From an uncultured delta proteobacterium (lineage in GTDB: Bacteria; Desulfobacterota; Binatia; UBA9968): a DNA stretch of 64,000 nt. The notes beneath the pieces are model-generated. The model was not told the origin of the DNA. It saw nothing but the letters and a program-made list of their open reading frames with translations, and did not search any database. Both the position numbers and the translations under genes were made by a program. The stretch spans positions 96,001-160,000 of the forward strand of contig CAWDPO010000040.1 in the NCBI GenBank assembly GCA_963804165.1. Reading direction: 5' to 3'. Below are positions 14,493 to 61,779 of this stretch, in pieces. Position 1 is the first letter of the stretch, and the number at the start of each line of letters is the position of its first letter.

Positions 14493-14507
14493 GGGTACGG
14501 CGCTTGC
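14493..14507 (+). promoter_or_regulatory. Putative sigma54 promoter (GGGTACGGCGCTTGC)
   Basis: GG-N10-GC spacing ~45 bp upstream of the receiver gene; imperfect -24 box. Confidence 0.45.
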
Positions 14508-14550
14508 GTCTTCGATTCAGTCTAAGACAAACTTGGAGAGCGTCACCGTT

Positions 14551-14934
14551 ATGGCAAAGCATGTTCTCATCGTTGATGATAATGGGCATCTGCGACGAAT
14601 ACTCGCGACCTTCCTACAATCGCGTGGATACGCAACCTCAGAAGCGGCAAGTGGCCACGAAGCGATCGAAACGGCAATCGCCGTGAAACCCAATCTCATC
14701 CTGTTGGATCTGACTCTCCCCGATATGAAGGGAACAGACGCCGCCCGGGCGATAAGAAAAGACCCAAGCACTGCACGCATCCCGATCGTTGGTTGCAGTG
14801 CCTATTTCGGATCGGAATTGCGGCAAGAGGCGCTACGTGCCGGAATGGCCGATTACTTGCAAAAACCAGTGTCTGCCGCCGGGATTGAGGCAGTAGTCGA
14901 ACAACTGATTCATTCGGACAACGCCCCCGCCTAA
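14551..14934 (+). CDS. Single-domain response regulator (receiver)
   Basis: VLIVDD, LILLDLTLPDMKG, IPIVGCSA, YLQKP motifs. Confidence 0.9.
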   Translation: MAKHVLIVDDNGHLRRILATFLQSRGYATSEAASGHEAIETAIAVKPNLILLDLTLPDMKGTDAARAIRKDPSTARIPIVGCSAYFGSELRQEALRAGMADYLQKPVSAAGIEAVVEQLIHSDNAPA

Positions 14935-15023
14935 TGAATTCTTTTGAGTATGATTCCGCATCGCGTTGACAGCCCTGGCACAGGTGGAAATGCCGTCAGC
15001 CAGGACTGTTCAATCGGCGGTTT

Positions 15024-15347
15024 CTATGCTTGCCAGCAGGATGAAACAGCTTGCGGAAATGGTTCGGTGTCGAGCTTTTTGGATGGTAATTGATGCACGT
15101 CTGCGTCCTCTTTGCGCCGGTTGCATAACTGCGGCAATGTTTCGTCAATCCATTGTGTCGCCAGCTGAAATCCAGAAATCAGCCCGTCTTCTTCAGTGAT
15201 CATTGAATCGCTGGTATGCAGTCTCGCCAAAGGGTTGGAGTTTTGTCGGATGCTAATTTCTGCGACGGGAGAAAATTTAGACGGCTGAAAATCGCCTCTC
15301 GCGAGCAAGACGAAAACCCAATACCCTTTGTACCGCACCGTGACCAT
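15024..15347 (-). CDS. Hypothetical protein
   Basis: ATG start with GAGG upstream; no recognisable family. Confidence 0.4.
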   Translation of the reverse strand: MVTVRYKGYWVFVLLARGDFQPSKFSPVAEISIRQNSNPLARLHTSDSMITEEDGLISGFQLATQWIDETLPQLCNRRKEDADVHQLPSKKLDTEPFPQAVSSCWQA

Positions 15348-15628
15348 TGGAGGACCTCTACTAGTTTCGCTCGGGCTTTCAATCTACGTCCCGATTAGTG
15401 AGCCCGGGCCTTGTGTGGATGCCAGAGACCACGACCGGTGTTTCTTTATTGCAAGTGCATAGTGAGAGGCTACCAACTATTGGCTACGGCCCTAAGTTTA
15501 CTAGGGTTCCAAATCCGGCCAATCCCTACTAAGGGCGCCGATTGCACTCTTTCCCCAATTAGCAACGTGAGCCTAAAACGTCAGCCGCTCTACTCCGTCG
15601 GTGATAAGCATTAACTGAGAGATGCCTC

Positions 15629-16592
15629 ATGAGTATTCTTCAAAACGCCGTCGATTCGATCTCTATCGGACTTGACGATTATCGTTCTTCAGACCCGCGT
15701 CGGCTGGTTTCCGCGACCAGGAATATCTACGCCGGAATTTTGTTGCTCTTTAAGCATAAGCTTTCGCTATTGAGCCCAGCCGGATCGGATGAGGTTCTGC
15801 TTAAACAAAAAGTTCAGCCTTCGAAGCAGCCCGACGGTCAAATCGGTTGGATCGGAAAAGGCAGAAAGACCGTCGACGCAATTCAAATTCAAGAGCGGTT
15901 CGAAGCCCTTGATATTGAGGTTCGATTGGGTCCGTGTAATGCGGATCAACGACTATCGAAACGAAATCGAGCACCATTTTAGTACCAAGACTAGGGACTC
16001 GGTCAGCAAGCTGATATCCAATTGCTTTATCGTTATTCGCGATTTTATTGCCGATCATCTTGACCGGGATGCGAAGGATATCCTAGGCCACGATGCCTGG
16101 GCTAGTTTTGTTGAAGTTGCCGAAGGTCATGAGCGAGAGAAAAGCGGTTGTCTACGTACAATGGATTCGGTTGACTGGGAGTCCTCGACTGTTGAAGAGG
16201 CCTTGGCCGACTATGATTGCCCGAACTGCGGTTCTGATTTAATTCGCATAAACAATCCTAAACCGGCACGGGCGGATAACCAATTTGTTTGCAAGTCGTG
16301 TAATCAGCAATGGGACTACGAGTCGATTGCTGCCGAAGCATTAGAATCTTTGGGAGCTGCCTATCATTCCAGCGCAATGAATGCCGGCGGAGAATTTGAA
16401 ATTGTCCAGTGTCCGACTTGTAATAATGAAGCATACATTTTCAGTGAACAACATTGTGGCGTATGCGGCGAGACCGCCAAACATATCTGTGATAGTTGCG
16501 GCAGGGAAATCCTCTCATCGGAACTTTATCTAGGTGGGCGCTGTGGTTACTGCGAGCACATGATGAATAAGGATGCGTCTCGTCGACGTTAG
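15629..16592 (+). CDS. HEPN-like protein with C-terminal Zn-ribbons, frameshifted at ~15923
   Basis: Joining the two ORFs gives ~320 aa with RNEIEH (RxxxxH) followed by six CxxC pairs (CPNC, CKSC, CPTC, CGVC, CDSC, CGYC). Confidence 0.7.
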
Positions 16593-16708
16593 GCGGCAAT
16601 TTTTGGAACAGTCGCTGCGCACAAAAACGGACAACCCAAACCATTCGGCCCTTCTCGGATTCGGTTCATTTTGGCAAGTAACTGTTCTGGCTGATCAGGG
16701 CAATCCAT

Positions 16709-17347: not shown

Positions 17348-18112
17348 TCATGCCGTCGCGATACGGACTCCTCCGGTGACCGCATGATTTCTATCGAGAA
17401 TATTCAGAGCCTCCACTGCGCGTTCTTCCGCTTCGACCATGATCAAGACCTGCCCGGAGCTGATGTCGGGCAAGTTGGGAATGTCTTCTGCAGCTACTGC
17501 TTGTGCCTGAGTTTCCCCGGCCAAACTTTGCTGCTCGGATTCGTCCTGCATGGCGATAAGAATTGAATTCTCGCTAAAGCCAGCGCTCTTTAGATCTTCG
17601 ATGGCTTTTTTGGCAGCCTCGCGATCGTGAACCAGGCCTGTCACTCTCGTCTCCCCGAGTAGCAGCTCGTCCTCGTCTTGCGCAGCCCTGTACTCGAAGG
17701 ACTCGGACACTGCTAGAAGCGTTTCGCCAACCAACATACGATCTCCCGTGGCTGTGGCAAGCTCGCCCAGCGAGGTAATGCCGAGTAACTCGTTATCTTG
17801 ATTGACCACGAGGATCCTCCGTACTTGATTTTCCTGCATGATCCGAGCCGCTTCTTCGACTGCTGCGTTCTCAGAGCAACACACAACCTCCGGGGTCATA
17901 ACTTCACGCACCGTCGCTGCAGTCGGATCGCGTCCTTCGGCAACCGCGCGAATGGTAATATCGCGGTCCGTGATCATACCCACTAGCTGATTGCCTTCGC
18001 ACACAGGCAGCGAGCCGACATCCAATTCCCTCATTTTTTCGGCAGCTCGTTGCAACGTAGCGTCTGATTGGACTGTCGCGACACGGGAGTTGATAAATTC
18101 TTTAAGCTGCAT
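17348..18112 (-). CDS. CBS-pair protein with C-terminal YflT-like stress domain (paralog 1)
   Basis: AAEKMRELDVGSLPVC...GMITDRDI, QVRRILVV...GITSLGEL; C-terminal TGLVHDREAAKKAIEDLKSAGF. Confidence 0.88.
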   Translation of the reverse strand: MQLKEFINSRVATVQSDATLQRAAEKMRELDVGSLPVCEGNQLVGMITDRDITIRAVAEGRDPTAATVREVMTPEVVCCSENAAVEEAARIMQENQVRRILVVNQDNELLGITSLGELATATGDRMLVGETLLAVSESFEYRAAQDEDELLLGETRVTGLVHDREAAKKAIEDLKSAGFSENSILIAMQDESEQQSLAGETQAQAVAAEDIPNLPDISSGQVLIMVEAEERAVEALNILDRNHAVTGGVRIATA

Positions 18113-18225: not shown

Positions 18226-18240
18226 GCAAATAGGGGGCCA
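18226..18240 (-). promoter_or_regulatory. Putative sigma54 promoter (TGGCCCCCTATTTGC)
   Basis: GG-N10-GC on the minus strand ~115 bp upstream of CBS paralog 1. Confidence 0.55.
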
Positions 18241-18988: not shown

Positions 18989-19003
18989 TGGCACGCGCCT
19001 TGC
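18989..19003 (+). promoter_or_regulatory. sigma54 promoter (TGGCACGCGCCTTGC)
   Basis: Perfect TGGCAC-N5-TTGC consensus. Confidence 0.75.
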
Positions 19004-19215
19004 GCAACTCTTTTGATAGTCTCTTGCAGGAGGTGTGAAATGAGGGATCCCGTGAAAAACAGAAGGTGACAACACTCAAGGGTTGTGTCTTTCCAAAGCG
19101 GACCGCCCTCGTGGCGTGGCGCAATTAGAGACCGGGTTGCTTCTCTGTGAGCGACCAAAGTTCGTTACCGAGGGTGGGGCCGAATCACTTAAACAAAAAA
19201 GAAGGGAGTTTGCGT

Positions 19216-19383
19216 ATGTGCTATAACTGTGGATGCCAAAAGCCCGATGACGATATGGGCAACCCGAAGAACATTACCAATAAGACATTCGAGGAAGCGG
19301 CAAAAGCATCTGGCCAAAACCCGGAAGAGGCCAAAAAAAACGCGTTGGAGCTGCTACAAAAAAACGCGGGCAGAAAACAATAA
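19216..19383 (+). CDS. 55-aa Cys-motif microprotein (MCYNCGCQKPDDDMG...)
   Basis: GAAGGGAG RBS before the ATG at 19216; CxxCxC N-terminus followed by a helical acidic/basic tail. Confidence 0.7.
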   Translation: MCYNCGCQKPDDDMGNPKNITNKTFEEAAKASGQNPEEAKKNALELLQKNAGRKQ

Positions 19384-20810: not shown

Positions 20811-20825
20811 TGGCATGCGCGTTGC
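20811..20825 (+). promoter_or_regulatory. sigma54 promoter (TGGCATGCGCGTTGC)
   Basis: Consensus -24/-12 upstream of the PepSY-like operon. Confidence 0.75.
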
Positions 20826-20958: not shown

Positions 20959-21711
20959 ATGAAAACGCGGATTTCACTTTTGAGTGTGATCATAGCTGGA
21001 ATGGCATTGACTGTTTCGTTCGCGACGGCTACTCACGCCGCCGAGCGAGACCAACGCAAAGATAATAGTAATCGCTATAGCGATCGGGATCGGATGAAAA
21101 CGGCGAAAGATGCTGAAGACAAATTGGAACAAGCGTTAAAAACCGGCGAAACCAAGGATTTCTATCGTCGCGAAATCGAAAAGATGGGTTGGCAAATCAC
21201 TGCTGTGAACTACGACAAGCCTGACTACCTCGAGTACGAAATCGTCAAAGGCGATGATTCGTATGAAGTACAAATTGACTTCGACAAAAACAGCGCCAAA
21301 GCAACGAAAGTCGACGTGGCCACGAATATCTGGAGAACCGACGCCACCGAACGGGCGTTGAAGGACCGGAAAAAAGTTACCTATCCAAGCCGCACGACGA
21401 CGAATCCGGAGCGCTATAGTGATCGGGATCGTATGAAAACCGCAAAGGATTCCGAGGACAAATTGGAACAAGCGTTAAAAACCGGCGAAACCAAGGATTT
21501 CTATCGTCGCGAAATCGAAAAGATGGGTTGGAAAGTGACTTCGGTGAATTACGATAAGCCGGACTATGTCGAGTATGAGATTGTCAAAGGTGATCAGTCT
21601 TACGAGGTGCAGATCGACATCGATAAGAACAGCCGTAAGGCGACCAAGGTCGACGTTACCATGAACGCGTGGAAAACCGACGCGACCAAACAGGCGCTCA
21701 AGCAGAAATGA
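20959..21711 (+). CDS. Secreted protein with two tandem PepSY-like repeats
   Basis: Signal peptide; 113-aa repeat (GWQITAVNYDKPDYLEYEIVKGDDSYEVQID); a ~72-nt stretch is identical between the copies (21121 and 21460). Confidence 0.8.
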   Translation: MKTRISLLSVIIAGMALTVSFATATHAAERDQRKDNSNRYSDRDRMKTAKDAEDKLEQALKTGETKDFYRREIEKMGWQITAVNYDKPDYLEYEIVKGDDSYEVQIDFDKNSAKATKVDVATNIWRTDATERALKDRKKVTYPSRTTTNPERYSDRDRMKTAKDSEDKLEQALKTGETKDFYRREIEKMGWKVTSVNYDKPDYVEYEIVKGDQSYEVQIDIDKNSRKATKVDVTMNAWKTDATKQALKQK

Positions 21712-21984: not shown

Positions 21985-22149
21985 ATGAATTGTCGTAAAA
22001 AGATCTTTTCAGTACTGATCTTAGCTTGTTCGCTGGCCGGTATTCTTAACGCGTTCGCCTGCAATACGGTTCGCGGGTTGGGAGAAGACATTGAGCGTGG
22101 AGGAGAAAAAACTCAGGATGCCGCGGAAAGAGTGAAAAGACGGTTGTAG
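21985..22149 (+). CDS. Entericidin A/B family lipoprotein
   Basis: Hand-translated MNCRKKIFSVLILACSLAGILNAFACNTVRGLGEDIERGGEKTQDAAERVKRRL; ACNTxxGxGEDI signature; GAGAGGTG RBS. Confidence 0.85.
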   Translation: MNCRKKIFSVLILACSLAGILNAFACNTVRGLGEDIERGGEKTQDAAERVKRRL

Positions 22150-22590: not shown

Positions 22591-22683
22591 ACTGGTCGTT
22601 TCGCTCATTTTCCCTTCTTCGCGCCAAGCTCGCCGCCTGAGGCACAGCCATTCTTGGCCTGTCATTTGCTGTAAACACGTTCG

Positions 22684-23853
22684 ATGACACGAAATCTGCC
22701 CGAACGGCTTATACGTGTAAACACCTCACCGAATCATGCGGTTAGGATTTCGGGTTTGCGATACACGACTGACAAGATTCCGGGAATCGCGCGGCGAAGA
22801 AAAGCCAAGGATTTTTGCTTCTACAGTCCGAAAGGGCGGCAAATACGCAACGCCGTTGAATTGCGCAGGATAAAATCGTTGGCTGTTCCTCCGGCATGGA
22901 CGAACGTATGGATCAGTCCTTATTCCAACAGCCATTTACAGGCGACCGGAAGAGATGCCAGAGGGCGGAAACAATTTCGCTATCATCCCCGTTGGCGTGA
23001 AGTACGTGATCAGAACAAATATGATCGTTTGATGCTGTTCGGTCGGGTTCTACCTAAATTGCGCACGGCTGTGGCTAAGGATTTAGGTTTGCCGGGATTG
23101 CCGCGCGCCAAAGTCATGGCAACGATAGTTAAACTCCTGGAAACGACGTTTATCCGAATCGGGAATGATGAGTACGCCCGTGAAAACCAATCCTTCGGAT
23201 TGACGACGCTGCGCAATAAGCACGTTAAGATCAGCGGATCGAAGATCCGATTTCGCTTTCGCGGCAAGAGCGGGATCACCCGCGATACGGATCTCAGCGA
23301 TCGAAAACTGGCGCAAATTGTCAGACGGTGCCAAGAACTCCCGGGGCAAGAACTTTTTCAGTATCTTGACGATGACGGCGAACCGCACGCGATTAATTCC
23401 AGCGATGTTAATGATTATCTCCGGGCAGTGGCGGGAATCGATTTGACAGCAAAGGACTTTCGTACCTGGGCGGGTACCGTACTGGCCGCACGCGCGTTTG
23501 CCGAGCTAGATTCTTTTAGTTCAAGGACCGAGGCTAAGCGAAACGTGGTCAAGGCTATTGAGAATGTCGCAAAAAGCCTAGGCAGGGAAGGGGGGGAGGA
23601 AGGGGGGAAGGAGGAGGAAAGAGAGGGGGGAGAGGGGAGACGAGAGAGAGACACACGGGCGGTTTGCCAGAAGTGCTATATCCACCCTGCAATTGTAAAT
23701 TCGTATCTCGATGGCTGCTTAGCCAAGAGTTTAAGCCGCCGAACACAGCAGCTGGTGGCCGCCGCGCCCAGTTCTTTAAGGCCTGATGAGGCTATGGTGA
23801 TGAGAGTTCTCGGCCAGAGCTTGAAGACCGACTCTGCTAAAAAGGTCGCATAA
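22684..23853 (+). CDS. Bacterial DNA topoisomerase IB with purine-rich in-frame insertion
   Basis: PPAWTNVWI, GRDARGRKQFRYH, IRIGNDEYA, FRGKSG, AKDFRTW and YIHP (catalytic Tyr) motifs. Confidence 0.92.
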   Translation: MTRNLPERLIRVNTSPNHAVRISGLRYTTDKIPGIARRRKAKDFCFYSPKGRQIRNAVELRRIKSLAVPPAWTNVWISPYSNSHLQATGRDARGRKQFRYHPRWREVRDQNKYDRLMLFGRVLPKLRTAVAKDLGLPGLPRAKVMATIVKLLETTFIRIGNDEYARENQSFGLTTLRNKHVKISGSKIRFRFRGKSGITRDTDLSDRKLAQIVRRCQELPGQELFQYLDDDGEPHAINSSDVNDYLRAVAGIDLTAKDFRTWAGTVLAARAFAELDSFSSRTEAKRNVVKAIENVAKSLGREGGEEGGKEEEREGGEGRRERDTRAVCQKCYIHPAIVNSYLDGCLAKSLSRRTQQLVAAAPSSLRPDEAMVMRVLGQSLKTDSAKKVA

Positions 23854-24395
23854 AGTGGCTGACCGAGGGCAGTGTTTTGGAAGCGAACGCACGGCGGGAA
23901 GGCCTATGCTCCGGCGAATAGGCGAGGGCGGCTAGTTTGTTCAGGAAAGTGCTGAACAGAAATTAAACCGGCGCGAGATCCTTTCCAGTTCGTCGTCTGA
24001 GTTCAGGATACTTTTTTCTTGGCGTCGTTTCTTTTGTTGCGCATTAGTTATCCTTCAATCGGAAGTTGACGAATACTCGTGTTTGCGAGCTCTGTTCCGG
24101 GCCGTGTTTTCCCGGGATGGAAGAGTAAGCCTTCCGATAGCCTTACCGTCACTCCACCACAAAGGCGTCCTGACCCCCAGGGTGCCTTTTTTCGTTTTTG
24201 CGTTGCAGTTCTGTGATTCACATTCGGTTAGGCTTATGGGCATCGTCACGACGGAATGTGCGGACTGTCTGGTGTCCGTCATTCGCCTAATTCCTGCTTT
24301 CGGTTGTACGCAAAACCACGTCGAATTGCTGTCGGGCGATGGGCCGCCCGGCGAAAAACCTATCGAGCTCGCTGAAAACGAAGGCGTACAGTCTT

Positions 24396-24410
24396 TGGCA
24401 TGTTGGTTGC
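24396..24410 (+). promoter_or_regulatory. sigma54 promoter (TGGCATGTTGGTTGC)
   Basis: Consensus, ~90 bp upstream of the PG-binding gene. Confidence 0.75.
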
Positions 24411-24500
24411 TCCCTATCATGGAGTAACTTTTGATCTCTGGGGATCTTTTGAAAATCGCCAGAACACTACACGAACATCAAATCTAAAAGGAGGAAATCT

Positions 24501-25085
24501 ATGAAGCCAAAGATTTTGTTACTTTCCGGATCGATTTTGACTGCGGCGTGGATGACCAGCGGTGTCGCGTTTGCGCAGCCTTCAGGAGCCACCAAACCAG
24601 AAAAGATCAATCCGGACGTATCCGGACCCGGAGCATCGAAGGGCGGATCGCAATCAGAACGCACCGGAGAAACTGGAGTGCCGTTACCCAAAGGCAGTCC
24701 GCAAGCCGGAACTGTAGAAATGGGTAAAAGCAAAACGAGTAGCTCCGACATGAGCACCACAGAGAAACGTGGCGCGTCGGGGAACGTCAAAGAGGTCCAG
24801 CAGGCGCTTAAAGATAAGGGCTATGATCCTGGTCCAATCGACGGCGCAATGGGCGCGCGTACAAAGGAAGCGCTCAAGTCTTTTCAGACCGCGAGTAATC
24901 TTCGACCCACTGGTACGCTCAACGCTGAAACTGCAGAGAAGCTCGGCGTCCAATCCAGCAGTTCGACAAGTTCGAGTCGATCCAGCACCGGACCGGCAGC
25001 GTCCCGCGACAAAATGAAGTCCGGCGATACGAGCGTGGGCAAAGACACCGACCAGCCGAATCAAACGCCGTCAAAAATGAAGTAA
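24501..25085 (+). CDS. Secreted peptidoglycan-binding (PG_binding_1) protein
   Basis: Signal peptide; VKEVQQALKDKGYDPGPIDGAMGARTKEALKSFQ...TGTL; AAGGAGG RBS. Confidence 0.88.
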   Translation: MKPKILLLSGSILTAAWMTSGVAFAQPSGATKPEKINPDVSGPGASKGGSQSERTGETGVPLPKGSPQAGTVEMGKSKTSSSDMSTTEKRGASGNVKEVQQALKDKGYDPGPIDGAMGARTKEALKSFQTASNLRPTGTLNAETAEKLGVQSSSSTSSSRSSTGPAASRDKMKSGDTSVGKDTDQPNQTPSKMK

Positions 25086-49744: not shown

Positions 49745-49798
49745 ATCTTACTTCCCTACAATCGATAGTGGCTAACGGTTTATTGGTTTCGTAATACA

Positions 49799-49813
49799 GC
49801 AATTCAGATGCCG
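49799..49813 (-). promoter_or_regulatory. Putative sigma54 promoter (CGGCATCTGAATTGC)
   Basis: GG-N10-GC ~55 bp upstream of the receiver gene. Confidence 0.65.
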
Positions 49814-50305: not shown

Positions 50306-50320
50306 TGGCATACAGCTTGC
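50306..50320 (+). promoter_or_regulatory. sigma54 promoter (TGGCATACAGCTTGC)
   Basis: Consensus, upstream of the CBS paralog 3-katE operon. Confidence 0.78.
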
Positions 50321-50370
50321 TCGATTTACCCAGTACTAAATCCGTGCGGAAGAAACTAAGGAGATGCTTT

Positions 50371-51204
50371 ATGCAGCTTAAAGATTTCGTCAACACTCGA
50401 GTAGAAACTGTTGAACCCAACGATACATTACAATGTGCTGCCGAAAAAATGAAAGAGTTGGATGTTGGGTCTTTGCCGGTCTGTGACAATGGCCATCTCG
50501 CCGGAGTGATTACGGATCGCGATATCATAGTCCGCGCGATTGCCCAAGGTAGCGATCCAGTAATCGTAATGGTGCGCGAAGTTATGACGCCCGAGGCTTT
50601 GTGGTGTTTTGAGGATGACGAGGTCGAAGAAGCCGCTCGGATCATGCAAGAGAATCAAGTGCGCCGAATAATGGTTCTCAACGATGCCAATGAGTTGGTC
50701 GGTATTACGTCGCTGGGCGAGTTAGCCACGGTCACGGGAAATCGCCTCTTAGCCGGCGAAACCCTCGAATCCGTTTCTGAGGACTCACGGGTTTCGCAAG
50801 CAGAAGACCCAGTCGAGTGGGAGTCCGAGGATAATTCGGACGTCGAAAGCGTCGGCGAATCTTCGCTGGAAACGAGAGTGACAGGCATTTTTCACGACCG
50901 CGAGTCTGCCAAAAAAACGATCGAGGAATTAAGAGACGCGGGATTTACGGATCGCGCAATTCTCATTGCGATGCACGATGAATCCGCTCAGGAAAGTTTC
51001 ATCGAGGAGACTCAAGTACAAGCCATAGCGCGCGAGGAAAATCCCAGCTTGCCCGATCTGAACTCTGGGCAGATCTTGATCGTGGTTGAAGCCGAGGAAC
51101 GCGTAGACGACGCTCTTGAAATACTCAATCGTAATCATGCGGTCACCGCTGGGGCTCGTATTCCCGCCCCATGCATGACAAAGGCGCCCTACGGGAAAAC
51201 ATGA
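50371..51204 (+). CDS. CBS-pair protein with C-terminal YflT-like domain (paralog 3)
   Basis: AAGGAG RBS; MQLKDFVN start matches the paralogs. Confidence 0.88.
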   Translation: MQLKDFVNTRVETVEPNDTLQCAAEKMKELDVGSLPVCDNGHLAGVITDRDIIVRAIAQGSDPVIVMVREVMTPEALWCFEDDEVEEAARIMQENQVRRIMVLNDANELVGITSLGELATVTGNRLLAGETLESVSEDSRVSQAEDPVEWESEDNSDVESVGESSLETRVTGIFHDRESAKKTIEELRDAGFTDRAILIAMHDESAQESFIEETQVQAIAREENPSLPDLNSGQILIVVEAEERVDDALEILNRNHAVTAGARIPAPCMTKAPYGKT

Positions 51205-51270: not shown

Positions 51271-53727
51271 ATGGCGAGCCGAAAAAAAACCCGTTCTACT
51301 CGTTCCACTAAAAACACAAAAACAAGGTCCACCGTCGGTCCCTCGAATAGAAAAACAAACAGCGACGTTGGAGACGCCCATTTGCGTTCGACCGTTGGCG
51401 GCCCTGCACGCGCTGGCGGTTCCGCCGAGGATGCGCTGTCTGTTAAGTTCCAGGCGACCCAGAAGCTCGTCGCAGACATGCCATACAACTCGAACAAAGC
51501 GCTCGAGCACGGCGAACTTTCTTCGCAGCCTCAAGAGGGGCAGAGAGTCACTCCCACCGATCCGTCAGCGACCGGCAGCACGTTGACCGAAACCAATCCA
51601 TCCGATAAGACAGGCGCCGGCAAGCCGCAGCTGGGGACCAATCCAGGCAGTCTTCCACTCGACCGGGTCCGTGTCGATTCGAGCGGGCAGACGCTCACCA
51701 CTAACCAGGGCGTTCCCATCGCCGACAATCAGAATTCGCTCAAAGCGGGGTATCGCGGACCTGCACTGCTGCAAGATTTTATTCTGCGCGAGAAGATCAC
51801 TCATTTTGACCACGAGCGCATACCGGAGCGCATTGTCCACGCCCGGGGTTCGGCGGCACATGGGTATTTCGAATGCTACGAATCGCTTAAAAAATATACG
51901 GCTGCGTCGCTGTTCGCCGAGGGCGGGAAGAGGACACCGGTCTTCGTCCGCTTCTCGACCGTCATTGGCGAACGGGGCTCTGCCGACACGGTGCGGGATG
52001 TGCGAGGTTTTGCTGTCAAGTTCTACACCGACCAAGGCAATTGGGACCTGGTCGGCAACAACATTCCCGTCTTCTTCATTCAGGACGCGATGAAATTTCC
52101 GGATCTGGTTCATGCAGCCAAGCCCGAGCCTCATTTCGCCGTACCGCAAGCGTCAACGGCCCACGATACTTTCTGGGACTTTATTTCCCTGATGCCGGAA
52201 TCGACGCACATGATGTTGTGGGTGATGTCGGACCGCGCCATTCCTCGCAGCTATCGCATGATGCAGGGCTTCGGTGTGCATACCTTTCGGTTAGTGAATG
52301 ACGACGGCGAGTCTCGTTTCGTAAAATTTCACTGGCGCCCGATGGCCGGAACCCACTCGCTCGATTGGGACGAGGCAGTCAAAATCGCAGGGGCTGATGC
52401 CGACTTTCACCGCCGCGACTTGTGGGAGGCGATCGAATCCGGCGCCTATCCGGAGTACGAGTTCGGCATGCAGATCTTCACTGAAGAGCAGGCCGAAAAG
52501 TTCAGCTTCGACGTATTAGACGCCACTAAAATCGTGCCGGAGGAACTCGTGCCTTTGACGCCTGTCGGGAAAATGGTTCTTAATCGCAACCCGGATAATT
52601 TCTTTGCGGAAACCGAGCAGGTTGCCTTCTGCGCCGCGCACATTGTTCCCGGATTGGACTTTTCTAACGATCCGCTACTGGCCGGTCGCATTCACTCATA
52701 TCAAGACACGCAGATATCGCGGCTCGGCGGCGCCAACTTTCATGAAATTCCCATTAACGCGCCGGTGGCGCCGCCGCACAACAACCAGCGTGATGGAATG
52801 CATCGTCAGGCGATCAATCGGGGCCGCGTCGCATACGAACCGAACTCGCTCGCAGGCGGCTGTCCTTTCCAGGCCGGCGCGGCTGGTTTTACTTCTTTTC
52901 CAGAGCCTCTAGTCGGGGACCAGGTGCGCGGTAAGCCTGAGCGCTTCGCGGATCATTACACGCAGGCGACGCTGTTCTGGAACAGCCAGACGGATGTTGA
53001 GAAGGCGCATATCATTCGGGGTTTTCGCTTCGAGCTGTCCCGCGCACAGATCCCAGCAGTGCGGACACGTGTCGTCGCCATGCTTGCCAACGTCGCAGAG
53101 GATCTTGCCGCCAGCGTCGCCCAAGGGCTTGGCATGGCTATGCCGGCGGCTTTGCCGAAGGTCATGGAAAAACCAACCGCGCCCGAAGTCGAGGCATCGC
53201 CTGCGCTGTCGCTGTTCGCCCGCCCCGGCGACGGCAGCATACGCACCCGGAGGATTGCAATTTTAGTCGCCGACGGGGTGGCTGGCGCGGATCTGAAGGC
53301 GCTGCACGACGGTCTCGTCGCACAGGGAGCGGTACCGCGCTATGTCGGAGCTCGCCTCGGCAGCGTTGAAAGCGCAGATGGAGATCCGATCGAAATAGAT
53401 ACGACTCTGGAGGCGGTTCCCGCCGTGCTCTATGACGCACTCGTAGTGCCTAGTGGCCGCGAAGCCGTAAAAACGCTCGGCAACCTGGGCCAGGCGGCGG
53501 AGTTCGTTAAGGAACAGTATCGCCATTGCAAACCGATTTTGGTGCTCGGCGCGGGCAGAGACTTGGTAGAAAATGCGGGAGTGCCGTTAACCCTATCAAA
53601 CGGCGAACGCGATCCTGGGCTACTGCAATTCCCGGATGAACACGTCGAGGCAGCTCTCGAACACTTTATAGCGGCGATTGCAAAGCACCGCCATTTTGCA
53701 AGGGAAATTGATCCTCCGCCGGTTTAA
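51271..53727 (+). CDS. katE: Large-subunit catalase HPII with C-terminal DJ-1/GATase-like domain
   Basis: [42 protein letters not shown]. Confidence 0.95.
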
Positions 53728-53879: not shown

Positions 53880-54545
53880 TTATCCGCGGCCGGTCATGGA
53901 GTGAGGCGCATCTACCGGTTTAGACTCCGGCGATCCCTTCTCGCGCAACACGATGCTGAGAACAATCATCACGGCGATGGAAAAAAACTCGCTCTGCCAA
54001 TTTTGCAGTGACTCGAACCAGAATTGGGCCGTGGCGAGATACTCGATCATGCTGACCGCGTGACCGCCGTGCGCGACTTCCCGCATGCTGTGTATCCTCG
54101 CGCCGCTCACGGCGTGCCACGCGAAAGCGATACCAAATAATAAAAGCAAGGCGAGGCTCAACGAATGACTGTAAAGGGTCAGGCTCAACCCACCCCGGCG
54201 TACGGGCCACGGCGTATCCTGCTTTAATCGCGCCACCCGCGGATCACGATCCACGGCTTCATTGCCATCAAGGGATTTGGATTCCGCCGAGCCTTTCTGA
54301 AACAGGAACGTCGTGAGCACGACGTAGGCGAACATCTGCAGAAATTCACTTTCCCAGTTTTCCATTGTCGCTTCGATAAAAGCATCACTGACCAGGTACT
54401 CCGCGAAGGTGATCGGCGCGAGGCGATGGTCGATACGCTCTTGATTATGCTGGCGCTGCCCGACAACGCTCAAGCCGATTTCAAAAATCGCGAATAAGGC
54501 AAAGAGTACGATCGATAGTCCGTTATTGTGGAGTACGCGCTTCAT
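53880..54545 (-). CDS. DUF6766-type membrane protein
   Basis: Repeated ENWESEFLQ / QNWQSEF and KGS.ESK motifs. Confidence 0.8.
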   Translation of the reverse strand: MKRVLHNNGLSIVLFALFAIFEIGLSVVGQRQHNQERIDHRLAPITFAEYLVSDAFIEATMENWESEFLQMFAYVVLTTFLFQKGSAESKSLDGNEAVDRDPRVARLKQDTPWPVRRGGLSLTLYSHSLSLALLLLFGIAFAWHAVSGARIHSMREVAHGGHAVSMIEYLATAQFWFESLQNWQSEFFSIAVMIVLSIVLREKGSPESKPVDAPHSMTGRG

Positions 54546-54971: not shown

Positions 54972-54986
54972 TGGCATACTAGTTGC
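54972..54986 (+). promoter_or_regulatory. sigma54 promoter (TGGCATACTAGTTGC)
   Basis: Consensus, upstream of the ferritin-like operon. Confidence 0.78.
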
Positions 54987-55063: not shown

Positions 55064-55657
55064 ATGAAAAACGAACAATTCAACCAGCTACTGTACGAAG
55101 CGTTGGAAACCGAAATAGGCGGTGTCCAGGTTTATGAAAACGCCATTCAATGCGCGGTCAACGATGACCTCAAAGAAGAGTGGCAGGAGTATCTCGAACA
55201 AACCCAAAAGCATGAACAGATCGTGCGCGGCCTATTTGAAAAATTCGGCCTGGATCCCGAAGCGGAGACGCCGGGACGCAAGGTGGTTCGGCACATCGGT
55301 GAATCGCTGGTCAAAGCGATGCAGATGGCGCGCGAAACCGGCGAACCGGACGCCGCGCAAATCGTCGCCGCTGAATGCGTCGTCGAAGCGGAAACGAAGG
55401 ATCATCTCAACTGGGAGCTCTTGGCGCAGGTGGCGGAAAAAAGCAAAGGCGACGACCGAAAGATCCTGCGCGACGCTCTTGACCAAGTTGAGGATGAAGA
55501 AGACGAGCACCTTTACCATACCACGGGATGGAGTCGCGAGTTGTGGATCCAGTCGCTGGGATTGCCGGCGGTGATACCGCCACCGGAAGAAGAAAAAGAC
55601 GTGAAGACGGCGATCGGCGCGGCACGTGCTAAGCAAAGCCGTAAAGAAATGCTTTAG
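55064..55657 (+). CDS. Ferritin-like (DUF892-like) stress protein
   Basis: ALETEIGGVQVYE, EQTQKH, ETKDHLNW, EDEEDEHLYH (ExxH-type motifs). Confidence 0.82.
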   Translation: MKNEQFNQLLYEALETEIGGVQVYENAIQCAVNDDLKEEWQEYLEQTQKHEQIVRGLFEKFGLDPEAETPGRKVVRHIGESLVKAMQMARETGEPDAAQIVAAECVVEAETKDHLNWELLAQVAEKSKGDDRKILRDALDQVEDEEDEHLYHTTGWSRELWIQSLGLPAVIPPPEEEKDVKTAIGAARAKQSRKEML

Positions 55658-55813: not shown

Positions 55814-56380
55814 ATGGCGGGTAAAAACACAGCTGCGTTCGGGATTTATCCCAACGAGGCAAGTCTGAGGATTGGCATCGAAGCGCTGCAGAGAGATGGC
55901 TTTCGAGTTGAGGACATCTCGGTGCTCTTTCCGGGAAACAGGGGCACCAAGGATTTTGCTCATGAGAAAGGAACTAAAGCACCGGAAGGCGCTGCCACAG
56001 GCGGTGGCTCCGGCGCTGTAGTGGGTGGGGTTCTGGGTTGGCTGGTGGGAATAGGCAGCATTGCGATTCCCGGCGTGGGCCCATTTATCGCCGCGGGTCC
56101 GATCATGGCAGCGTTGGCGGGCGCCGGGGTGGGTGGCGCGGTCGGCGGCTTGACGGGAGCGCTCATCGGCGCCGGAATTCCCGAGTACGAAGCGAAAAGA
56201 TACGAAGGTCTGGTAAAAAATGGCGGCATCCTGGTTTCCGTCCATTGCGATAACTCGGAGTGGACTGCAAAGGCGAAGGATATTCTGGAAAGAACCGGAG
56301 CTGACGATATCTCCTCCGCAGGGGAAGCGAGCGCGGACTTTGCAGAGACCGACAAACCGAAACCTCGTACTCACGTGTAG
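55814..56380 (+). CDS. Glycine-rich general stress membrane protein, paralog 2
   Basis: DFAHEKGTKAPEGAATG, GIPEYEAKRYEG; paralog of 33210-33749. Confidence 0.85.
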   Translation: MAGKNTAAFGIYPNEASLRIGIEALQRDGFRVEDISVLFPGNRGTKDFAHEKGTKAPEGAATGGGSGAVVGGVLGWLVGIGSIAIPGVGPFIAAGPIMAALAGAGVGGAVGGLTGALIGAGIPEYEAKRYEGLVKNGGILVSVHCDNSEWTAKAKDILERTGADDISSAGEASADFAETDKPKPRTHV

Positions 56381-56444: not shown

Positions 56445-56603
56445 ATGGCCGACCAGAATTGTGCTCACACCGGGTGCAACTGTAAAGTCGAACAGGGTAA
56501 AGGCGTTTCCAAAGGCGGCAATACTTACTGCAGCGATCATTGCGGGAACGCCGGCTCGTCTGCTTCGAGCAAGTGCCAATGCAGACACCCAGGTTGCCAG
56601 TAG
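56445..56603 (+). CDS. Bacterial metallothionein (SmtA/BmtA-like), 52 aa
   Basis: MADQNCAHTGCNCKVEQGKGVSKGGNTYCSDHCGNAGSSASSKCQCRHPGCQ; CxxxxCxC...YCSxxC...CxCxHxxC pattern; AAGGAGGT RBS. Confidence 0.88.
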   Translation: MADQNCAHTGCNCKVEQGKGVSKGGNTYCSDHCGNAGSSASSKCQCRHPGCQ

Positions 56604-56733: not shown

Positions 56734-57852
56734 ATGACTACTTCGAAACATCAGCGGCAAATCCGTTATGCGGTGGTCGGCTTGGGACATATCGCTCAAG
56801 TGGCCGTGCTCCCAGCGTTCGCGCATGCGCGGGAGAATTCGCAACTGACGGCGTTGGTGTCCGATGATCCGAAAAAACTAAAAACCCTGGGGCGCCGTTA
56901 TCACGTCGATCATCTCTTTTCTTACCGCGAATATGACGATTGCTTACGCAGCGGCATGGTGGACGCGGTTTATATTGCTTTGCCGAACCATCTGCATGCG
57001 GATTACAGCATACGCGCCGCGCGGGCCGGGATTCACGTTTTGTGCGAAAAACCCATGGCTGTTACCGAAAAGGAGTGTTGGGCGATGCTTCGCGCCGGGG
57101 AGCGTGCCGGCACTAAATTGATGATCGCCTATCGGCTTCATTTTGAAGAAGCTAATATGACGGCCGTAAGGATCGTACGCTCGGGAAAACTCGGCAATCC
57201 GCGCTTCTTCACGTCGGCGTTTTCGATGCAGGTGCGCCCGGACAATATTCGCACCGATCGAGAAAAAGGCGGTGGTACGCTTTACGACATCGGCATTTAT
57301 TGCATCAATGCCGCGCGCTATCTCTTCGGCGCAGAGCCCACGGAGGTGGTCGCATTCAGCAGCGCTAACAAAAAGGACCCGCGCTTCAAAGAAATCGACG
57401 AAACGACCAGCGCGCTTTTGCGCTTTCCGGACGATCGTCTGGCGGTCTTCACTTCGAGCTTTGGCGCGGCCGACGTGGCCAGTTACCGTCTGGTCGGCAC
57501 GAAAGGCGACGTGCGACTCGAGCAGGCTTACGAGTACGTTTATCCGATCGATCTATTCGTCACGGTCAAGGGCAAAAGCCGGAAGCAAACCTTTCGCAAA
57601 CGAGATCAGTTTGCGCCCGAGCTGATTTATTTCTCCAATTGTATTTTGAATAACAAGCGTCCCGAGCCCTCCGGGGCGGAGGGACTCGCGGACGTGCGTA
57701 TTATCGAGGCGCTCTATCGTTCGGCAAAACGACGGAGGCCGGTGAAAATCGAAGCCGTGCGCCAACGGCAAAGGCCGTCGATCAAACAAACAATACATCG
57801 CCCGGCTGTCGACAAGCCCGCACTTGTGCACACCGAGAGCGCTGCGTTGTAA
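56734..57852 (+). CDS. Gfo/Idh/MocA family oxidoreductase (glucose-fructose oxidoreductase-like)
   Basis: YAVVGLGHI, HVLCEKPMA, MIAYRLHF, GGGTLYDIGIYC. Confidence 0.9.
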   Translation: MTTSKHQRQIRYAVVGLGHIAQVAVLPAFAHARENSQLTALVSDDPKKLKTLGRRYHVDHLFSYREYDDCLRSGMVDAVYIALPNHLHADYSIRAARAGIHVLCEKPMAVTEKECWAMLRAGERAGTKLMIAYRLHFEEANMTAVRIVRSGKLGNPRFFTSAFSMQVRPDNIRTDREKGGGTLYDIGIYCINAARYLFGAEPTEVVAFSSANKKDPRFKEIDETTSALLRFPDDRLAVFTSSFGAADVASYRLVGTKGDVRLEQAYEYVYPIDLFVTVKGKSRKQTFRKRDQFAPELIYFSNCILNNKRPEPSGAEGLADVRIIEALYRSAKRRRPVKIEAVRQRQRPSIKQTIHRPAVDKPALVHTESAAL

Positions 57853-58184: not shown

Positions 58185-58591
58185 GATTGAATTATGCGAG
58201 CGTCCTGAAGTTGAGTTGAGAACAGCGATGTTAGGGCTGATAGGTTTTACAGGGATCAAGAGAAAAGAACCGCCGAATCCTAAGAATCCGCCCATAAAAG
58301 AGCCCAAGACTCGGAAGAAACCCATCGGAGATCCTCCACCCAAGAGACGGCCAAAACGAGTTGCGCCTTTGGAGAACTTAACGGCGTGACGCGAAATGGC
58401 CAAGTATTTTGCCGCTCATGCCCAGGCAGAGGCGTCTCAGTTTTGGCGGTGCGCGGCGCTTCATTCCAATTCACAGCGCTCGTGAACGAGCTGTCCTCTT
58501 TGAAGCCGGCCATCCGACTTACCCGTTGATTGCATCGCCACCGCGTTGGCGGTTTTATAATGGAGAGGCTGACGGAAAGGCGGTTTGATCT

Positions 58592-59551
58592 ATGGCATTT
58601 TGCTTGCTGCCGGACGAATCGGTGGAAGATGGAATCAAGCGGGTTGTCAGCGAAGAAATCAGCCAAGCGATCAAAGAAATTGATAACCCCAGATTGAAGC
58701 GCAGCGAAGCCATCCACGAAGTCCGCAAACACTGCAAGAAGATCCGCGGGCTGCTCCGACTCGTCAGACGAGAGTTCGAAGAGACTTATCAGTTTGAAAA
58801 CGGCTGGTTTCGCGATGCGGCGAAAGGGCTTGCCGAGCTGCGCGACGCCGAAGCCATAATCGAGACCTACGATAGCCTGATGGATAAATTCAGCGATCAA
58901 GTCGACCGGCGCGCCTTTGCGCCGATGCGCCGGGCATTGACCCTGCGACGGAAAAAGATCATGGAAGAGACCGGAGACTTGAGTCAGAAACTCAAACAGC
59001 TTCGCACCCACATGGAGAAAGCCGCCCGACGGGTCGCGGCTTGGAAACTAAAGGTGAAAGAATTCGACGGTATCGAAGGGGGACTCGTCGCCACCTATCG
59101 ACGAGCGCGCAAGACCCTGGTCACCGCCTACGACGAGCCGAGCGCGGAGAATTTTCACGAATGGCGAAAGCAGGCCAAGTATCACGATTATCATATGAGA
59201 TTGTTACGCGAACTGTGGAAACCGGTTATGCGCTCGCTGTCGAAGCAGACCGACGATCTGTCGGATCTACTGGGTGACGATCATAACCTCGACGTCCTTC
59301 ACAAGATGTTGCTCAAATCTCCTAAAAAATACGGCAAGAAACGGGATATCCAGGTGCTCCTGGGTTTGATCGACCGGAGCAGCGCCGAGCTAAGGATGGA
59401 AGCCCACTCCGTCGGCGCAAGAATCTTTGCGGAAAAGCCAAAGACTTTCGGCCGCCGCTTCAGCGATTATTGGGAAGCATGGCGGTCCGAGGCCGAGCTT
59501 CCCTCGAAAAAACTCAGCGAAGAGCCCGCCGTCGTCACTGTGGCCGCATGA
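58592..59551 (+). CDS. CHAD domain protein
   Basis: IHEVRKHCKKIRGLLRL, LRDAE, FHEWRKQAK, LGDDHNL. Confidence 0.9.
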   Translation: MAFCLLPDESVEDGIKRVVSEEISQAIKEIDNPRLKRSEAIHEVRKHCKKIRGLLRLVRREFEETYQFENGWFRDAAKGLAELRDAEAIIETYDSLMDKFSDQVDRRAFAPMRRALTLRRKKIMEETGDLSQKLKQLRTHMEKAARRVAAWKLKVKEFDGIEGGLVATYRRARKTLVTAYDEPSAENFHEWRKQAKYHDYHMRLLRELWKPVMRSLSKQTDDLSDLLGDDHNLDVLHKMLLKSPKKYGKKRDIQVLLGLIDRSSAELRMEAHSVGARIFAEKPKTFGRRFSDYWEAWRSEAELPSKKLSEEPAVVTVAA

Positions 59552-59655
59552 CTTCCTCATTCGGCGCGCCTTTTTGGGCCAGGCTCTAGCCTAGTATCCT
59601 GTCCCAGAAGTTCGCGACATAATTCTCGCGTCATTCCGTCGGAAAATCTCCCCTT

Positions 59656-59676
59656 CCCCTCTTTGGCAAAGAGGGG
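59656..59676. repeat. Short palindrome CCCCTCTTTG-G-CAAAGAGGGG (REP-like)
   Basis: Perfect 10-bp inverted repeat in the intergenic region between convergent genes. Confidence 0.5.
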
Positions 59677-59984
59677 TGAGAATCGCACGGCGCCACACTA
59701 GATTATTGGCCCGCGTAAACGGGTGTTCTCGATCCTTCGCCTTCGGTGCCCGGCCAAGGCGTAGCCAATTGATCCGGACTCGATTCCATTTTCAATTGCC
59801 GGTGTTGCAAACGCCCGGAGCCTTTATCGTCTCTAAGTATCGCTCGCCGATTTTTCGCTAGCGCACCTCCGCTCCTGTGACACCGATCGCGAGGTAACCT
59901 TGGACGATATTTTGTGAAGCGCATTAGTTGCTAAGCTAACCAAACGGTCCTTCGTGTCAGTCTTTGCAGCTTCGGATATGGCAG

Positions 59985-60959
59985 CTATTTACGAACGCGC
60001 TCCGCTGCGACCGACTCACCTTGCGATTGCCGCTTTGTCCTGCGAGGGGTGAGAAACACGACGGCATGAGAGCCGACCTTAATGTCAATCTCTTTCTGTC
60101 GAGCCGATTTCCGATCTTTGCCGGTTGGCCAAGACTTGTCGTCGATATGAACGGGAAAGTCGTCCCATCTAAGTTGTAGATGTCGCCCCTGACGAACCGG
60201 AAGATTCGCATTCGCGAGGCCGCCCGCTAAGGTTTTCGTCAGATAGGTGCGCAACTTGCCTTGCTCACGACGGGACAGCAAAACCACGTCGAGAAGTCCA
60301 TCGTTGGTATCCGCGCCGGGAACCAGATCGAGGTTGGGACCGACGTACCGGATATTCAATGCTTCCAGCATAATATATTCACCCGACAGATCTTGGTCAT
60401 CCAGGCGAATCTTCAATTTCTTTGGACGATGTTTGTGGATCTCGTCTTTCAAGATACGCAGGACCGACTTGATCTCCGCCTTGCGGCCGACCTCCTCCGG
60501 AGGATCAACATTTTTCTGGACTTCCAGTCTGGCGACCGTCGTGGCAAATAGTCCGACTCCGAAGCCCTCGATGAAGTAATTTGAGCCCCATGGACCCTTG
60601 GCACGGCCAATGTCAAAATTGATGCGCCGCGCCGACTTCCATCCCCGGACCAGCTGTTTCAGCGGCCTACCCGTCAGGCCGAGCGAGTGAGCGATGTTGT
60701 TGGCCGTTCCCACGGGTAAAATGGCTATAGGGGTGCGGTTGCCAACCATTCTCCGGGCGACCTTGCCGACGGTGCCGTCGCCGCCTGCGACCGCAATGAT
60801 GTCGCAGGATTTCTTCTTGATCGCCTTTTTCCATTTATTCTGTTTCGCAGATTGATAGTTGACTTTGTGTCCGGCGGCACGAATCATAGCGACAATCTGC
60901 TTACCCGACAGCTGCGAGTCGTCACCGGCGGATGGATTATGAATGAGCGTAATTTTAAT
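59985..60959 (-). CDS. Diacylglycerol kinase family protein (start appears as ATT)
   Basis: LIHNPSAG, AGGDGTV, LPVGTANNIA, DGLLDV; the frame extends to an ATT at 60959 behind AAGGAGGT. Confidence 0.88.
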   Translation of the reverse strand: MKITLIHNPSAGDDSQLSGKQIVAMIRAAGHKVNYQSAKQNKWKKAIKKKSCDIIAVAGGDGTVGKVARRMVGNRTPIAILPVGTANNIAHSLGLTGRPLKQLVRGWKSARRINFDIGRAKGPWGSNYFIEGFGVGLFATTVARLEVQKNVDPPEEVGRKAEIKSVLRILKDEIHKHRPKKLKIRLDDQDLSGEYIMLEALNIRYVGPNLDLVPGADTNDGLLDVVLLSRREQGKLRTYLTKTLAGGLANANLPVRQGRHLQLRWDDFPVHIDDKSWPTGKDRKSARQKEIDIKVGSHAVVFLTPRRTKRQSQGESVAAERVRK

Positions 60960-61005
60960 GGGTCTACCTCCTTAGACCGGCACTCTCACGGGCCAATGCT
61001 CGGTG

Positions 61006-61476
61006 TCAGGCGCGATGACTGGACCGTCGGATTCGGGTATACAAACCCAATTGCCGCAGTTTTTCGCTGCTAAATATCATACAGTCGCTTTGTCCGTCGA
61101 AGCCTCGGCAATCGACGGAAACGGAATCAGACATCCAGGAAATATGAAAAGCGCTTACCCCGTTCCGGTCGAGCAGATCCCCCAGAGTACGTAATAGTCG
61201 AGACAGGTTGCATGGCGTCTGCAAACGCGCAAGAGAATAATTCCGTCTCTGTTTATGTCCTTGGGCGTCAAGCCGTGAAATATAGGATGGATTGAAACGC
61301 AATGACCGGATTGCGGCACACCGGCCGCCAGGCTCAAAAGAATCGCTCTTATTGAGATCTGTGAGCGAATCACTGCGCACGATATAACCGTCACCGTCAT
61401 TCTCCAGCTCAAAAACCGCCACCCGCGCGGCCTCCAGCGACTGTCCGATCACTCTTAACGATTTAGCATGAGTCAT
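61006..61476 (-). CDS. Hypothetical protein, paralog of 13814-14315
   Basis: KSLRVIGQSLE...FELENDGDGYIV and LSRLLRTLGDLLDR...FHISW. Confidence 0.7.
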   Translation of the reverse strand: MTHAKSLRVIGQSLEAARVAVFELENDGDGYIVRSDSLTDLNKSDSFEPGGRCAAIRSLRFNPSYISRLDAQGHKQRRNYSLARLQTPCNLSRLLRTLGDLLDRNGVSAFHISWMSDSVSVDCRGFDGQSDCMIFSSEKLRQLGLYTRIRRSSHRA

Positions 61477-61764
61477 TGGATATTGGTTTTCATCTTATTA
61501 ATGCGCCAGCTGCCAACATAGCCGGGAGAAATGTTTTTAATGTCCCTTTCGGGGATGGTTGAAATTCAGGCCGGCGCAGGGCGGCCTCGACGTTCGATCT
61601 CGGTTCAAGTTCAAAAAACCGCCTGGATTCCGGCTTCCGCCGGACCGACGGAAACAAGAGTCGACTTCCAGTCGACAATTCTTTTAAAACCCTTCGGCTT
61701 GGAGTCACGGCTCGTTGAGTTTTTGATCGATGAACATCCCTTCCGATATTGAGACCAGGACTGA

Positions 61765-61779
61765 GCAATGGATATGCCA
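61765..61779 (-). promoter_or_regulatory. sigma54 promoter (TGGCATATCCATTGC)
   Basis: Consensus on the minus strand upstream of the 61476/DAGK operon. Confidence 0.72.

Follow-up and report, generated by a model that had tools for sequence, protein, structure and literature searches.

We describe a 47-kb cluster of stress-protection genes in which nearly every operon is headed by a site of the -24/-12 type recognised by the alternative sigma factor sigma-54 (RpoN). The cluster lies in a 64 kb stretch of DNA, the window in what follows, from an uncultured delta proteobacterium (GTDB lineage Desulfobacterota, Binatia, UBA9968; assembly GCA_963804165.1, contig CAWDPO010000040.1, positions 96,001 to 160,000 of the forward strand). 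An earlier sequence-only reading of this stretch had proposed a general stress response driven by sigma-54 and a bacterial enhancer-binding protein (bEBP), the kind of AAA+ activator that sigma-54 promoters need for firing. We put at about 0.7 the probability that the sites are sigma-54-type promoters of a conserved stress or dormancy regulon of at least 12 transcription units, a reading that is well supported by the statistics, placement and comparative conservation of the sites.

Sigma-54-type sites in the stress island

Both strands of the window were searched for exact matches to TGGCAY-N5-TTGC, with 100 dinucleotide-preserving shuffles as the null. Eight are present where 0.27 are expected (shuffle maximum 3, none of the 100 reaching 8), an expectation in agreement with the ~0.25 estimated in the sequence-only reading. 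When the search is relaxed to at most one mismatch to TGGCAY-N5-TTGCW, with the GG and GC doublets held fixed and 40 shuffles as the null, 13 sites are found, eight perfect and five with one mismatch, against 2.05 expected and a shuffle maximum of 6. The doublets are 10 nt apart in all these sites, which is the geometry of sigma-54 (TGGCAC-N5-TTGCW), and the information content of a position weight matrix (PWM) of the sites is highest at TGGCA and TTGC. The motif is asymmetric, is oriented toward the gene throughout and agrees with the sigma-54 consensus at each informative position. Two conserved blocks centred ~11 nt apart fit sigma-54 and are incompatible with -35/-10 recognition by sigma-70-family factors, and it is because of this spacing that we take the sites to be sigma-54 promoters. 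A scan for sigma-70-type promoters over 48-62 kb shows no enrichment (12 matches against 8.1 +/- 2.8).

As to placement, in 12 of the 13 cases the site precedes, in the same orientation, an open reading frame (ORF) bearing a ribosome-binding site, with 42-290 nt between the -12 element and the start codon. The first 13 kb of the window, occupied by nonribosomal peptide synthetase (NRPS) genes, hold no site with one mismatch or fewer. The motif also emerges unguided: a Gibbs sampler given the 300 nt ahead of 26 gene starts (8 restarts, 4 shuffled sets) recovers TGGCAY-N5-TTGC in 12 of the 26 upstream regions in its best restart, with an information content of 11.4 compared with 10.2-10.6 for the shuffled sets. 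That the matches are chance occurrences, for which only a doubtful site at 58593 speaks, has a negligible probability and is already refuted by the shuffles, by placement and orientation, and by the conservation across genomes described below.

The seven perfect sites named in the sequence-only reading (18989, 20811, 24396, 48428, 50306 and 54972 on the plus strand, 61765-61779 on the minus strand) are all confirmed, and its near-consensus sites are present too, those at 18226-18240 (minus), 31719-31733 (minus), 32549 (plus) and 49799-49813 (minus) with one mismatch and that at 14493 (plus) with two. To these we add an eighth perfect match at 58593 (plus), a one-mismatch site at 22655 (plus) ahead of the TopoIB gene, and, from a PWM scan, two weaker candidates at 48242-48256 and 13354-13368 (both minus). 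In order along the window, the sites and the genes behind them are:

13354-13368, minus strand: weak candidate (TGGCAC-N5-CTGC) before a trehalase-N fragment (13092-13250) and a second BON gene (12604-12975)
14493-14507, plus strand: two-mismatch site (GGGTAC-N5-TTGCG), 42 nt before a single-domain response regulator (14551-14934)
18226-18240, minus strand: one-mismatch site (TGGCCC-N5-TTGC), 112 nt before CBS-YflT paralog 1 (17348-18112)
18989-19003, plus strand: perfect site before a small ORF (19210-19383, 57 amino acids, no family match)
20811-20825, plus strand: perfect site, 132 nt before a secreted protein of 250 amino acids (20959-21711), followed by an entericidin-family lipoprotein (21985-22149)
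22655-22669, plus strand: one-mismatch site before bacterial topoisomerase IB (22756-23853)
24396-24410, plus strand: perfect site, 89 nt before a peptidoglycan-binding-domain protein (24501-25085), in a ~200-bp module duplicated at 48428
31719-31733, minus strand: one-mismatch site before TreZ (29552-31498) and then an alpha-amylase-family enzyme (27862-29511)
32549-32563, plus strand: one-mismatch site, 227 nt before a BON gene (32792-33181), after which YflT (33210-33749), hemerythrin (33993-34433), CBS-YflT paralog 2 (34642-35454), BrkB (35821-36822) and an AI-2E/B12-binding transporter (36840-38780) follow on the same strand
48242-48256, minus strand: weak candidate (TGGTAC-N5-TTGC), ~190 nt before a gene for a GH94/cyclic-glucan-synthase-like protein of 2950 amino acids (39199-48051)
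48428-48442, plus strand: perfect site in the copy of the 24396 module; the ORFs beyond it (48491-48787 and 48910-49185) match no family
49799-49813, minus strand: one-mismatch site before a single-domain receiver (49382-49747)
50306-50320, plus strand: perfect site, 49 nt before CBS-YflT paralog 3 (50371-51204) and catalase HPII, KatE (51271-53727)
54972-54986, plus strand: perfect site, 76 nt before a ferritin-like/DUF892-like protein (55064-55657), after which come a YflT-like protein (55814-56380), a metallothionein-like ORF (56445-56603) and a GFO/IDH/MocA oxidoreductase (56734-57852)
58593-58607, plus strand: perfect match overlapping the ATG (58592) of a CHAD gene (58592-59551)
61765-61779, minus strand: perfect site before a protein of 156 amino acids and no assigned family (61006-61476) and a YegS/DAGK-like lipid kinase (59985-60887)

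Genes were assigned with Pfam and NCBIfam, by which 69 window ORFs were scanned, including every ORF of at least 250 amino acids. The domain assignments and the placement together bear out the claim that the sites stand at the head of stress operons (katE, treZ, BON, ferritin-like, CBS and entericidin). KatE scores 1035 bits and TreZ 598 bits against a cutoff of 539, the entericidin-family lipoprotein exceeds its Pfam cutoff, and the three proteins combining a CBS pair with YflT are 64-71% identical; the match of the ferritin-like/DUF892-like protein to its family is weak. A DUF6766 protein is encoded at 53880-54545. Many broad-spectrum protectant operons thus share one promoter type, as in a general stress regulon, and content of the KatE, BON, trehalose and YflT kind is that of the RpoS, SigB and EcfG regulons in other phyla.

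Some further features of these genes may be recorded here. The 52-amino-acid ORF at 13092-13250 (minus) matches the N-terminal part of TREH_N only (E 3e-8) and is probably a gene remnant, and the Cys-rich ORF at 56445-56603 (plus), also of 52 amino acids and lying within the ferritin-like operon, resembles prokaryotic metallothionein at 26.6 bits, below the cutoff of 33. The AI-2E family transporter (36840-38780, plus) carries a fused C-terminal B12-binding-like domain, and the fusion is kept in related metagenome-assembled genomes (MAGs; L001 5069-6886 and L002 3386-5257 among the loci described below). The NRPS genes (331-9345, minus) encode C-A-T-C, A-T and A-T-C modules; the match of the middle ORF's adenylation domain starts only at profile position 58, pointing to a frameshift or split in the interval 5872-6049.

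Conservation in relatives and a parallel in Burkholderiaceae

A profile scan of genome contigs with the CBS-YflT alignment returned 10 loci (individual loci are given L numbers). Five of them (L001-L004 and L007), from four MAGs labelled 'uncultured delta proteobacterium' or Thermodesulfobacteriota, share a gene set of TopoIB, BON, YflT, AI-2E/B12, TreZ, GlgX, CBS-YflT, BrkB, hemerythrin, KatE and DUF6766, their proteins being 50-88% identical to those of the window. These five loci contain 16 sites with at most one mismatch against ~3.7 expected, and 14 of the 16 are correctly placed ahead of genes:

before BON: L001 3700, L002 2050, L004 1904
before TreZ: L002 5328, L004 5268
before CBS-YflT: L002 9932, L003 3015, L004 9911, L007 9851, and L001 9327 (via a DUF1003 gene)
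before BrkB: L001 8634 (minus strand), L003 5211 (minus strand)
before an unassigned gene: L001 16703
before a GAF-phosphorylase gene: L007 5778
inside ORFs: L001 5776, L007 17089

Sites with two mismatches also precede YflT and hemerythrin genes in the related loci. The comparison rests on listings anchored at each gene, as a MAFFT alignment of the orthologous promoters aligned the closely related L002, L004 and L007 and misplaced the distant loci. The motif is kept in the relatives while its flanks diverge, so that the conservation at orthologous promoters which the sequence-only reading had named as a test is seen at the BON, TreZ, CBS-YflT and BrkB promoters of four related MAGs. Like the motif itself, its enrichment, placement and orientation, and its de novo recovery, this conservation in a diverged lineage is a direct observation.

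In the five remaining loci, where the shared genes are limited to distant CBS homologs, 2 sites are found and ~2.6 expected. One of these loci, from an Erythrobacter MAG (L008, position 9943), has GGAAC-N17-CGTT 58 nt ahead of the CBS homolog and no sigma-54-type site there; this we take to be an EcfG-type promoter, as expected in an alphaproteobacterium. Because this homolog carries a motif of the EcfG type, promoter class is lineage-specific for a single gene family, CBS.

The gene content raises the alternative that the sites belong to a developmental programme leading to a resting stage (cyst- or spore-like dormancy, desiccation) rather than to a rapid stress response, in parallel with the sigma-54 activator cascades of myxobacterial development, in which Nla-type activators have a role. 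Much of the content does lean to long-term protection (trehalose, cyclic glucan synthase, the peptidoglycan-binding protein, KatE, TopoIB and CHAD), the nearest relatives are labelled delta proteobacteria, and Myxococcus xanthus sporulation transcriptome papers reportedly discuss trehalose and enhancer-binding proteins. The scanned window ORFs, however, include no sporulation or development marker genes, and the same gene families occur in the vegetative general stress regulons of other phyla, as the EcfG motif in the Erythrobacter locus illustrates. We consider such a programme quite improbable.

A second occurrence of sites of this kind came from a tblastn search of PLSDB plasmids with CBS-YflT, in which the matches are mostly alphaproteobacterial and from Burkholderiaceae. 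On plasmid p2 of Caballeronia zhejiangensis (L011, record 217961-231949) the CBS gene belongs to a stress island that also encodes Mn-catalase, BrkB, DUF3597, a pair of single-domain receivers and cytochrome oxidase, and almost all of its intergenic regions have a sigma-54-like site. In 30 kb there are 8 matches to NGGCAY-N5-WTGCW where 0.73 are expected, and one of them is a perfect TGGCAT-N5-TTGCT ahead of the Mn-catalase gene; the flanking stretches have 1 against 0.77 and 3 against 1.0. The CBS ortholog on pBRH01 of Mycetohabitans rhizoxinica has CGGCAC-N5-TTGCT 44 nt ahead of its start, and that on a Burkholderia multivorans plasmid has a one-mismatch site. Since the Caballeronia receivers, at 21-28% identity, are not orthologous to the window's own, the Burkholderiaceae case is one of analogous wiring and not the same island. 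Across the Burkholderiaceae islands (L011; L013 6624, 11637 and 13434; L015 11941; L014 11936) sigma-54-like sites precede Mn-catalase, BrkB, CBS, receiver, cytochrome oxidase, DUF4142 and other genes, and several intergenic regions contain divergent, back-to-back pairs of sites.

Signalling genes and a proposed activator

The window ends in a histidine kinase gene (61947-63998, minus) encoding PAS_10, PAS (PAS_4/9), HisKA and HATPase_c domains, with its 5' end beyond the window edge. The sequence-only reading had suggested that the response might be fed by a CheB/CheR-type kinase and orphan receivers; the domains just named are the only ones seen in the part inside the window, and any CheB/CheR parts would lie outside. 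AtoS and ZraS, two kinases that are partnered with sigma-54 activators, give the best scores for the HisKA/HATPase core, and the receiver encoded at 49382-49747 most resembles those of AtoC, ZraR and NtrC. As both single-domain receivers (14551-14934 and 49382-49747) sit behind sigma-54-type sites, this suggests that they are outputs or feedback elements, rather than demonstrated inputs.

Two candidates in this part of the analysis were rejected. No degenerate AAA+ domain is recognisable 3' of the NtrC-like receiver in the stop-to-stop ORFs of 48050-50300, and no conserved signalling module is claimed, because identity to the window's signalling proteins is only 21-28% for the receiver and kinase of L007 and for the two receivers from Caballeronia. 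In L007 (9851-12008) the site is followed by a YflT-only fragment, a receiver and a histidine kinase, the last two not orthologous to the window signalling genes. The NtrC-like receiver has no ATG, GTG or TTG 5' of its conserved N-terminal ILVVDDE, and the first canonical start, TTG at 49705, would delete the acidic pocket; translation may begin at a non-canonical codon, or the sequence may contain an error.

If the sites are sigma-54 promoters, the regulon would encode stress and desiccation protection through catalase HPII, trehalose synthesis, BON/OsmY-like, YflT/CBS and ferritin-like proteins, hemerythrin, entericidin, TopoIB and the two receivers, with the cyclic-glucan synthase probably a further member. 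Sigma-54 RNA polymerase would wait on these promoters as a closed complex and would fire only upon activation of an ATP-hydrolysing bEBP encoded outside the window, for which a two-component phosphorelay is the most likely route. The AtoS/ZraS-like PAS kinase is the candidate input, and the two sigma-54-driven receivers, one of them NtrC-type, are candidate feedback elements acting as phosphate sinks or modulators. Sigma-54 binding and bEBP dependence, like the identity of the signal and the co-regulation of the operons as a single response, are what we infer.

Several results weigh against the reading of the sites as sigma-54 promoters of one regulon. Neither rpoN, a sigma-54 domain nor a Sigma54_activat/AAA+ activator is found in the 69 window ORFs, and neither rpoN nor a bEBP in 90 ORFs of the related loci. 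Dyad and k-mer counts over 29 upstream regions, examined for a shared enhancer, are unremarkable, and a Gibbs search of 14 regions returns only the A-tract-like CGAAAAACCT, with an information content of 10.1 against 9.0-9.5 in shuffles, partly driven by duplication of the 24396 and 48428 sites. Those two sites are not independent, since ~200 bp (from about -135 to +60) are duplicated between them. De novo recovery of the promoter motif occurred in one of the 8 restarts only, and enrichment by PWM is circular, the PWM having been trained on the sites themselves, and is given little weight. Finally, the site at 58593, the sole exception to upstream placement among the 13, overlaps the CHAD start codon.

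At this last site, a terminator-like hairpin lies just 5' of the match, and the CHAD start region (58586-58622) contains, in frame, a TGA two codons before the ATG and a GTG at 58622, close to the expected start of a sigma-54 transcript. Its status as a promoter is uncertain: it could serve the GTG at 58622, or be a chance match. The duplicated module (24260-24460 and 48290-48490) precedes two unrelated genes, its shared leader holds CTTTTGAT...TTGAAAATC, and the upstream part of the second copy overlaps the divergent candidate site of the glucan synthase gene.

The duplication, and the lack of sigma-54 machinery locally in the window and the related loci, would also fit a motif that is not a sigma-54 promoter but is bound by some other regulator or belongs to a dispersed repeat. 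Against this, the flanks of the sites are unrelated to each other apart from the single duplicated pair, an asymmetric, gene-directed motif that matches the consensus is conserved while those flanks diverge, and an Rfam search of the window finds 0 RNA families; such an origin is very improbable.

What the sequence-only reading proposed stands in part. The motif is enriched, intergenic, oriented and conserved; no rpoN or bEBP accompanies it in the ORFs scanned, the signalling scheme of a CheB/CheR kinase with orphan receivers as inputs gains no support from the present data, and a single response is unsupported, as no shared enhancer was found. The absence of a shared enhancer leaves as possibilities several activators, one activator with degenerate sites, or an activator that acts from solution. 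The first of these would make the island a collection of separate circuits, its sigma-54 promoters genuine and subsets of them controlled by several bEBPs with their own signals (oxidative, osmotic, envelope). The missing common enhancer motif would be explained in this way, and activators without a DNA-binding domain that act from solution, such as FlgR and CtcC, would leave no enhancer either. The genes form a functionally coherent set, are clustered on the DNA and travel with the motif in relatives, and the CBS-YflT paralogs have a site in all three of their separate operons, all of which argues against divided control. In its favour, Deltaproteobacteria can have dozens of bEBPs with small regulons, and the account of Desulfovibrio vulgaris describes 37, including the activator DVU3305 with its small 'general stress response' regulon (PMC4641369). 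We regard separate circuits as unlikely.

Relation to known stress responses

Set beside established systems, the island shares its promoters with one group and its genes with another. With the sigma-54/bEBP circuits of NtrC, PspF, ZraR and AtoC it has in common the -24 GG/-12 GC element TGGCAY-N5-TTGC, the placing of the sites at the head of operons, and the presence close by of an AtoS/ZraS-like kinase and an NtrC-like receiver. It differs in its targets, which are stress protectants and not nitrogen, motility, transport or envelope genes, and in that no activator or enhancer is found in the scanned ORFs and upstream regions. The RpoS general stress regulon of Gammaproteobacteria includes katE, osmY, ots/tre genes, yciE/F and ecnB, and near-identical functions are present here as KatE, BON, trehalose synthesis, the DUF892-like protein and entericidin. 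The island promoters, however, are of the -24/-12 and not the sigma-70-family -35/-10 type, and activation would need ATP hydrolysis by a bEBP, not accumulation of a sigma factor. The Bacillus SigB regulon includes YflT (general stress protein 17M) and KatE; YflT-domain proteins and catalase are thus in common, and the sigma class differs. The EcfG-NepR-PhyR response of Alphaproteobacteria shares the CBS, BON and KatE families and has single-domain receivers in its regulon; only one GGAAC-N16-17-CGTT match occurs in the window, inside an NRPS gene. Among the 69 window ORFs there is no sigma-70-family domain, no extracytoplasmic function (ECF) sigma factor (EcfG included), NepR or PhyR, and no partner-switching (Rsb) gene.

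We found no description of a general-stress gene set with -24/-12 promoters in the full-text literature, a coverage outside which subscription-only papers and supplements fall. The promoter machinery is known and the gene content is known; their combination is unreported. The suggestion that the system is undescribed holds to the extent that no such regulon was found, and is tempered by partial precedents. In D. vulgaris, two target operons of DVU3305 are labelled 'general stress response' in the regulon account (PMC4641369), and KatE is lost in a Burkholderia pseudomallei rpoN2 mutant, the relevant text reporting no -24/-12 promoter (PMC4745423); as presented in those passages, neither has the island-wide wiring seen here. 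In the Rrp2-RpoN-RpoS cascade of Borrelia, as outlined in the accounts drawn on, sigma-54 and a bEBP stand atop a global adaptive response, with sigma-54 driving one promoter, that of rpoS, and RpoS the rest, whereas in the island some dozen effector operons have sigma-54-type sites of their own. The low-oxygen lxa locus of B. cenocepacia, described in the relevant sections as a stress and persistence island of ~50 genes with one motif at 17 intergenic points (PMC3721108), was considered as the same system and rejected, its motif being an Anr/Fnr-like TGA-N6-TCA inverted repeat and not a -24/-12 element. In the passages concerned, a comparative study ties sigma-54 to the cell exterior and names general stress for SigB and RpoS only (PMC3162934), a Geobacter sulfurreducens RpoN study lists stress genes without a detectable RpoN promoter and an RpoD-type promoter for trehalose phosphatase (PMC2725144), and the trehalose passages of the Geobacter metallireducens genome paper draw no sigma-54 connection.

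The most far-reaching interpretation, which we offer tentatively and hold to be somewhat doubtful, is a fourth kind of general stress response beside those of RpoS, SigB and EcfG, in which sigma-54 and one dedicated bEBP, possibly lacking a DNA-binding domain, would directly switch a whole regulon of protectants. An uncultured deltaproteobacterial lineage would have conserved this response, and its presence in Burkholderiaceae replicons would reflect either a parallel origin or transfer.

General stress responses are the textbook case of sigma-factor replacement within the sigma-70 family. Sigma-54 is distinguished by a fully silent off-state and a requirement for ATP hydrolysis by its activator. 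Its usual associations are with nitrogen, motility, transport and the cell exterior, as in the comparative survey's relevant sections (PMC3162934). The parallels in Burkholderiaceae provide cultured organisms for testing. If true, the island would offer a searchable promoter signature for the stress regulons of uncultured soil lineages, and a stress or dormancy regulon wired to sigma-54 would represent a different control logic, with a tight off-state, energy-gated firing and the integration of signals at an AAA+ activator.

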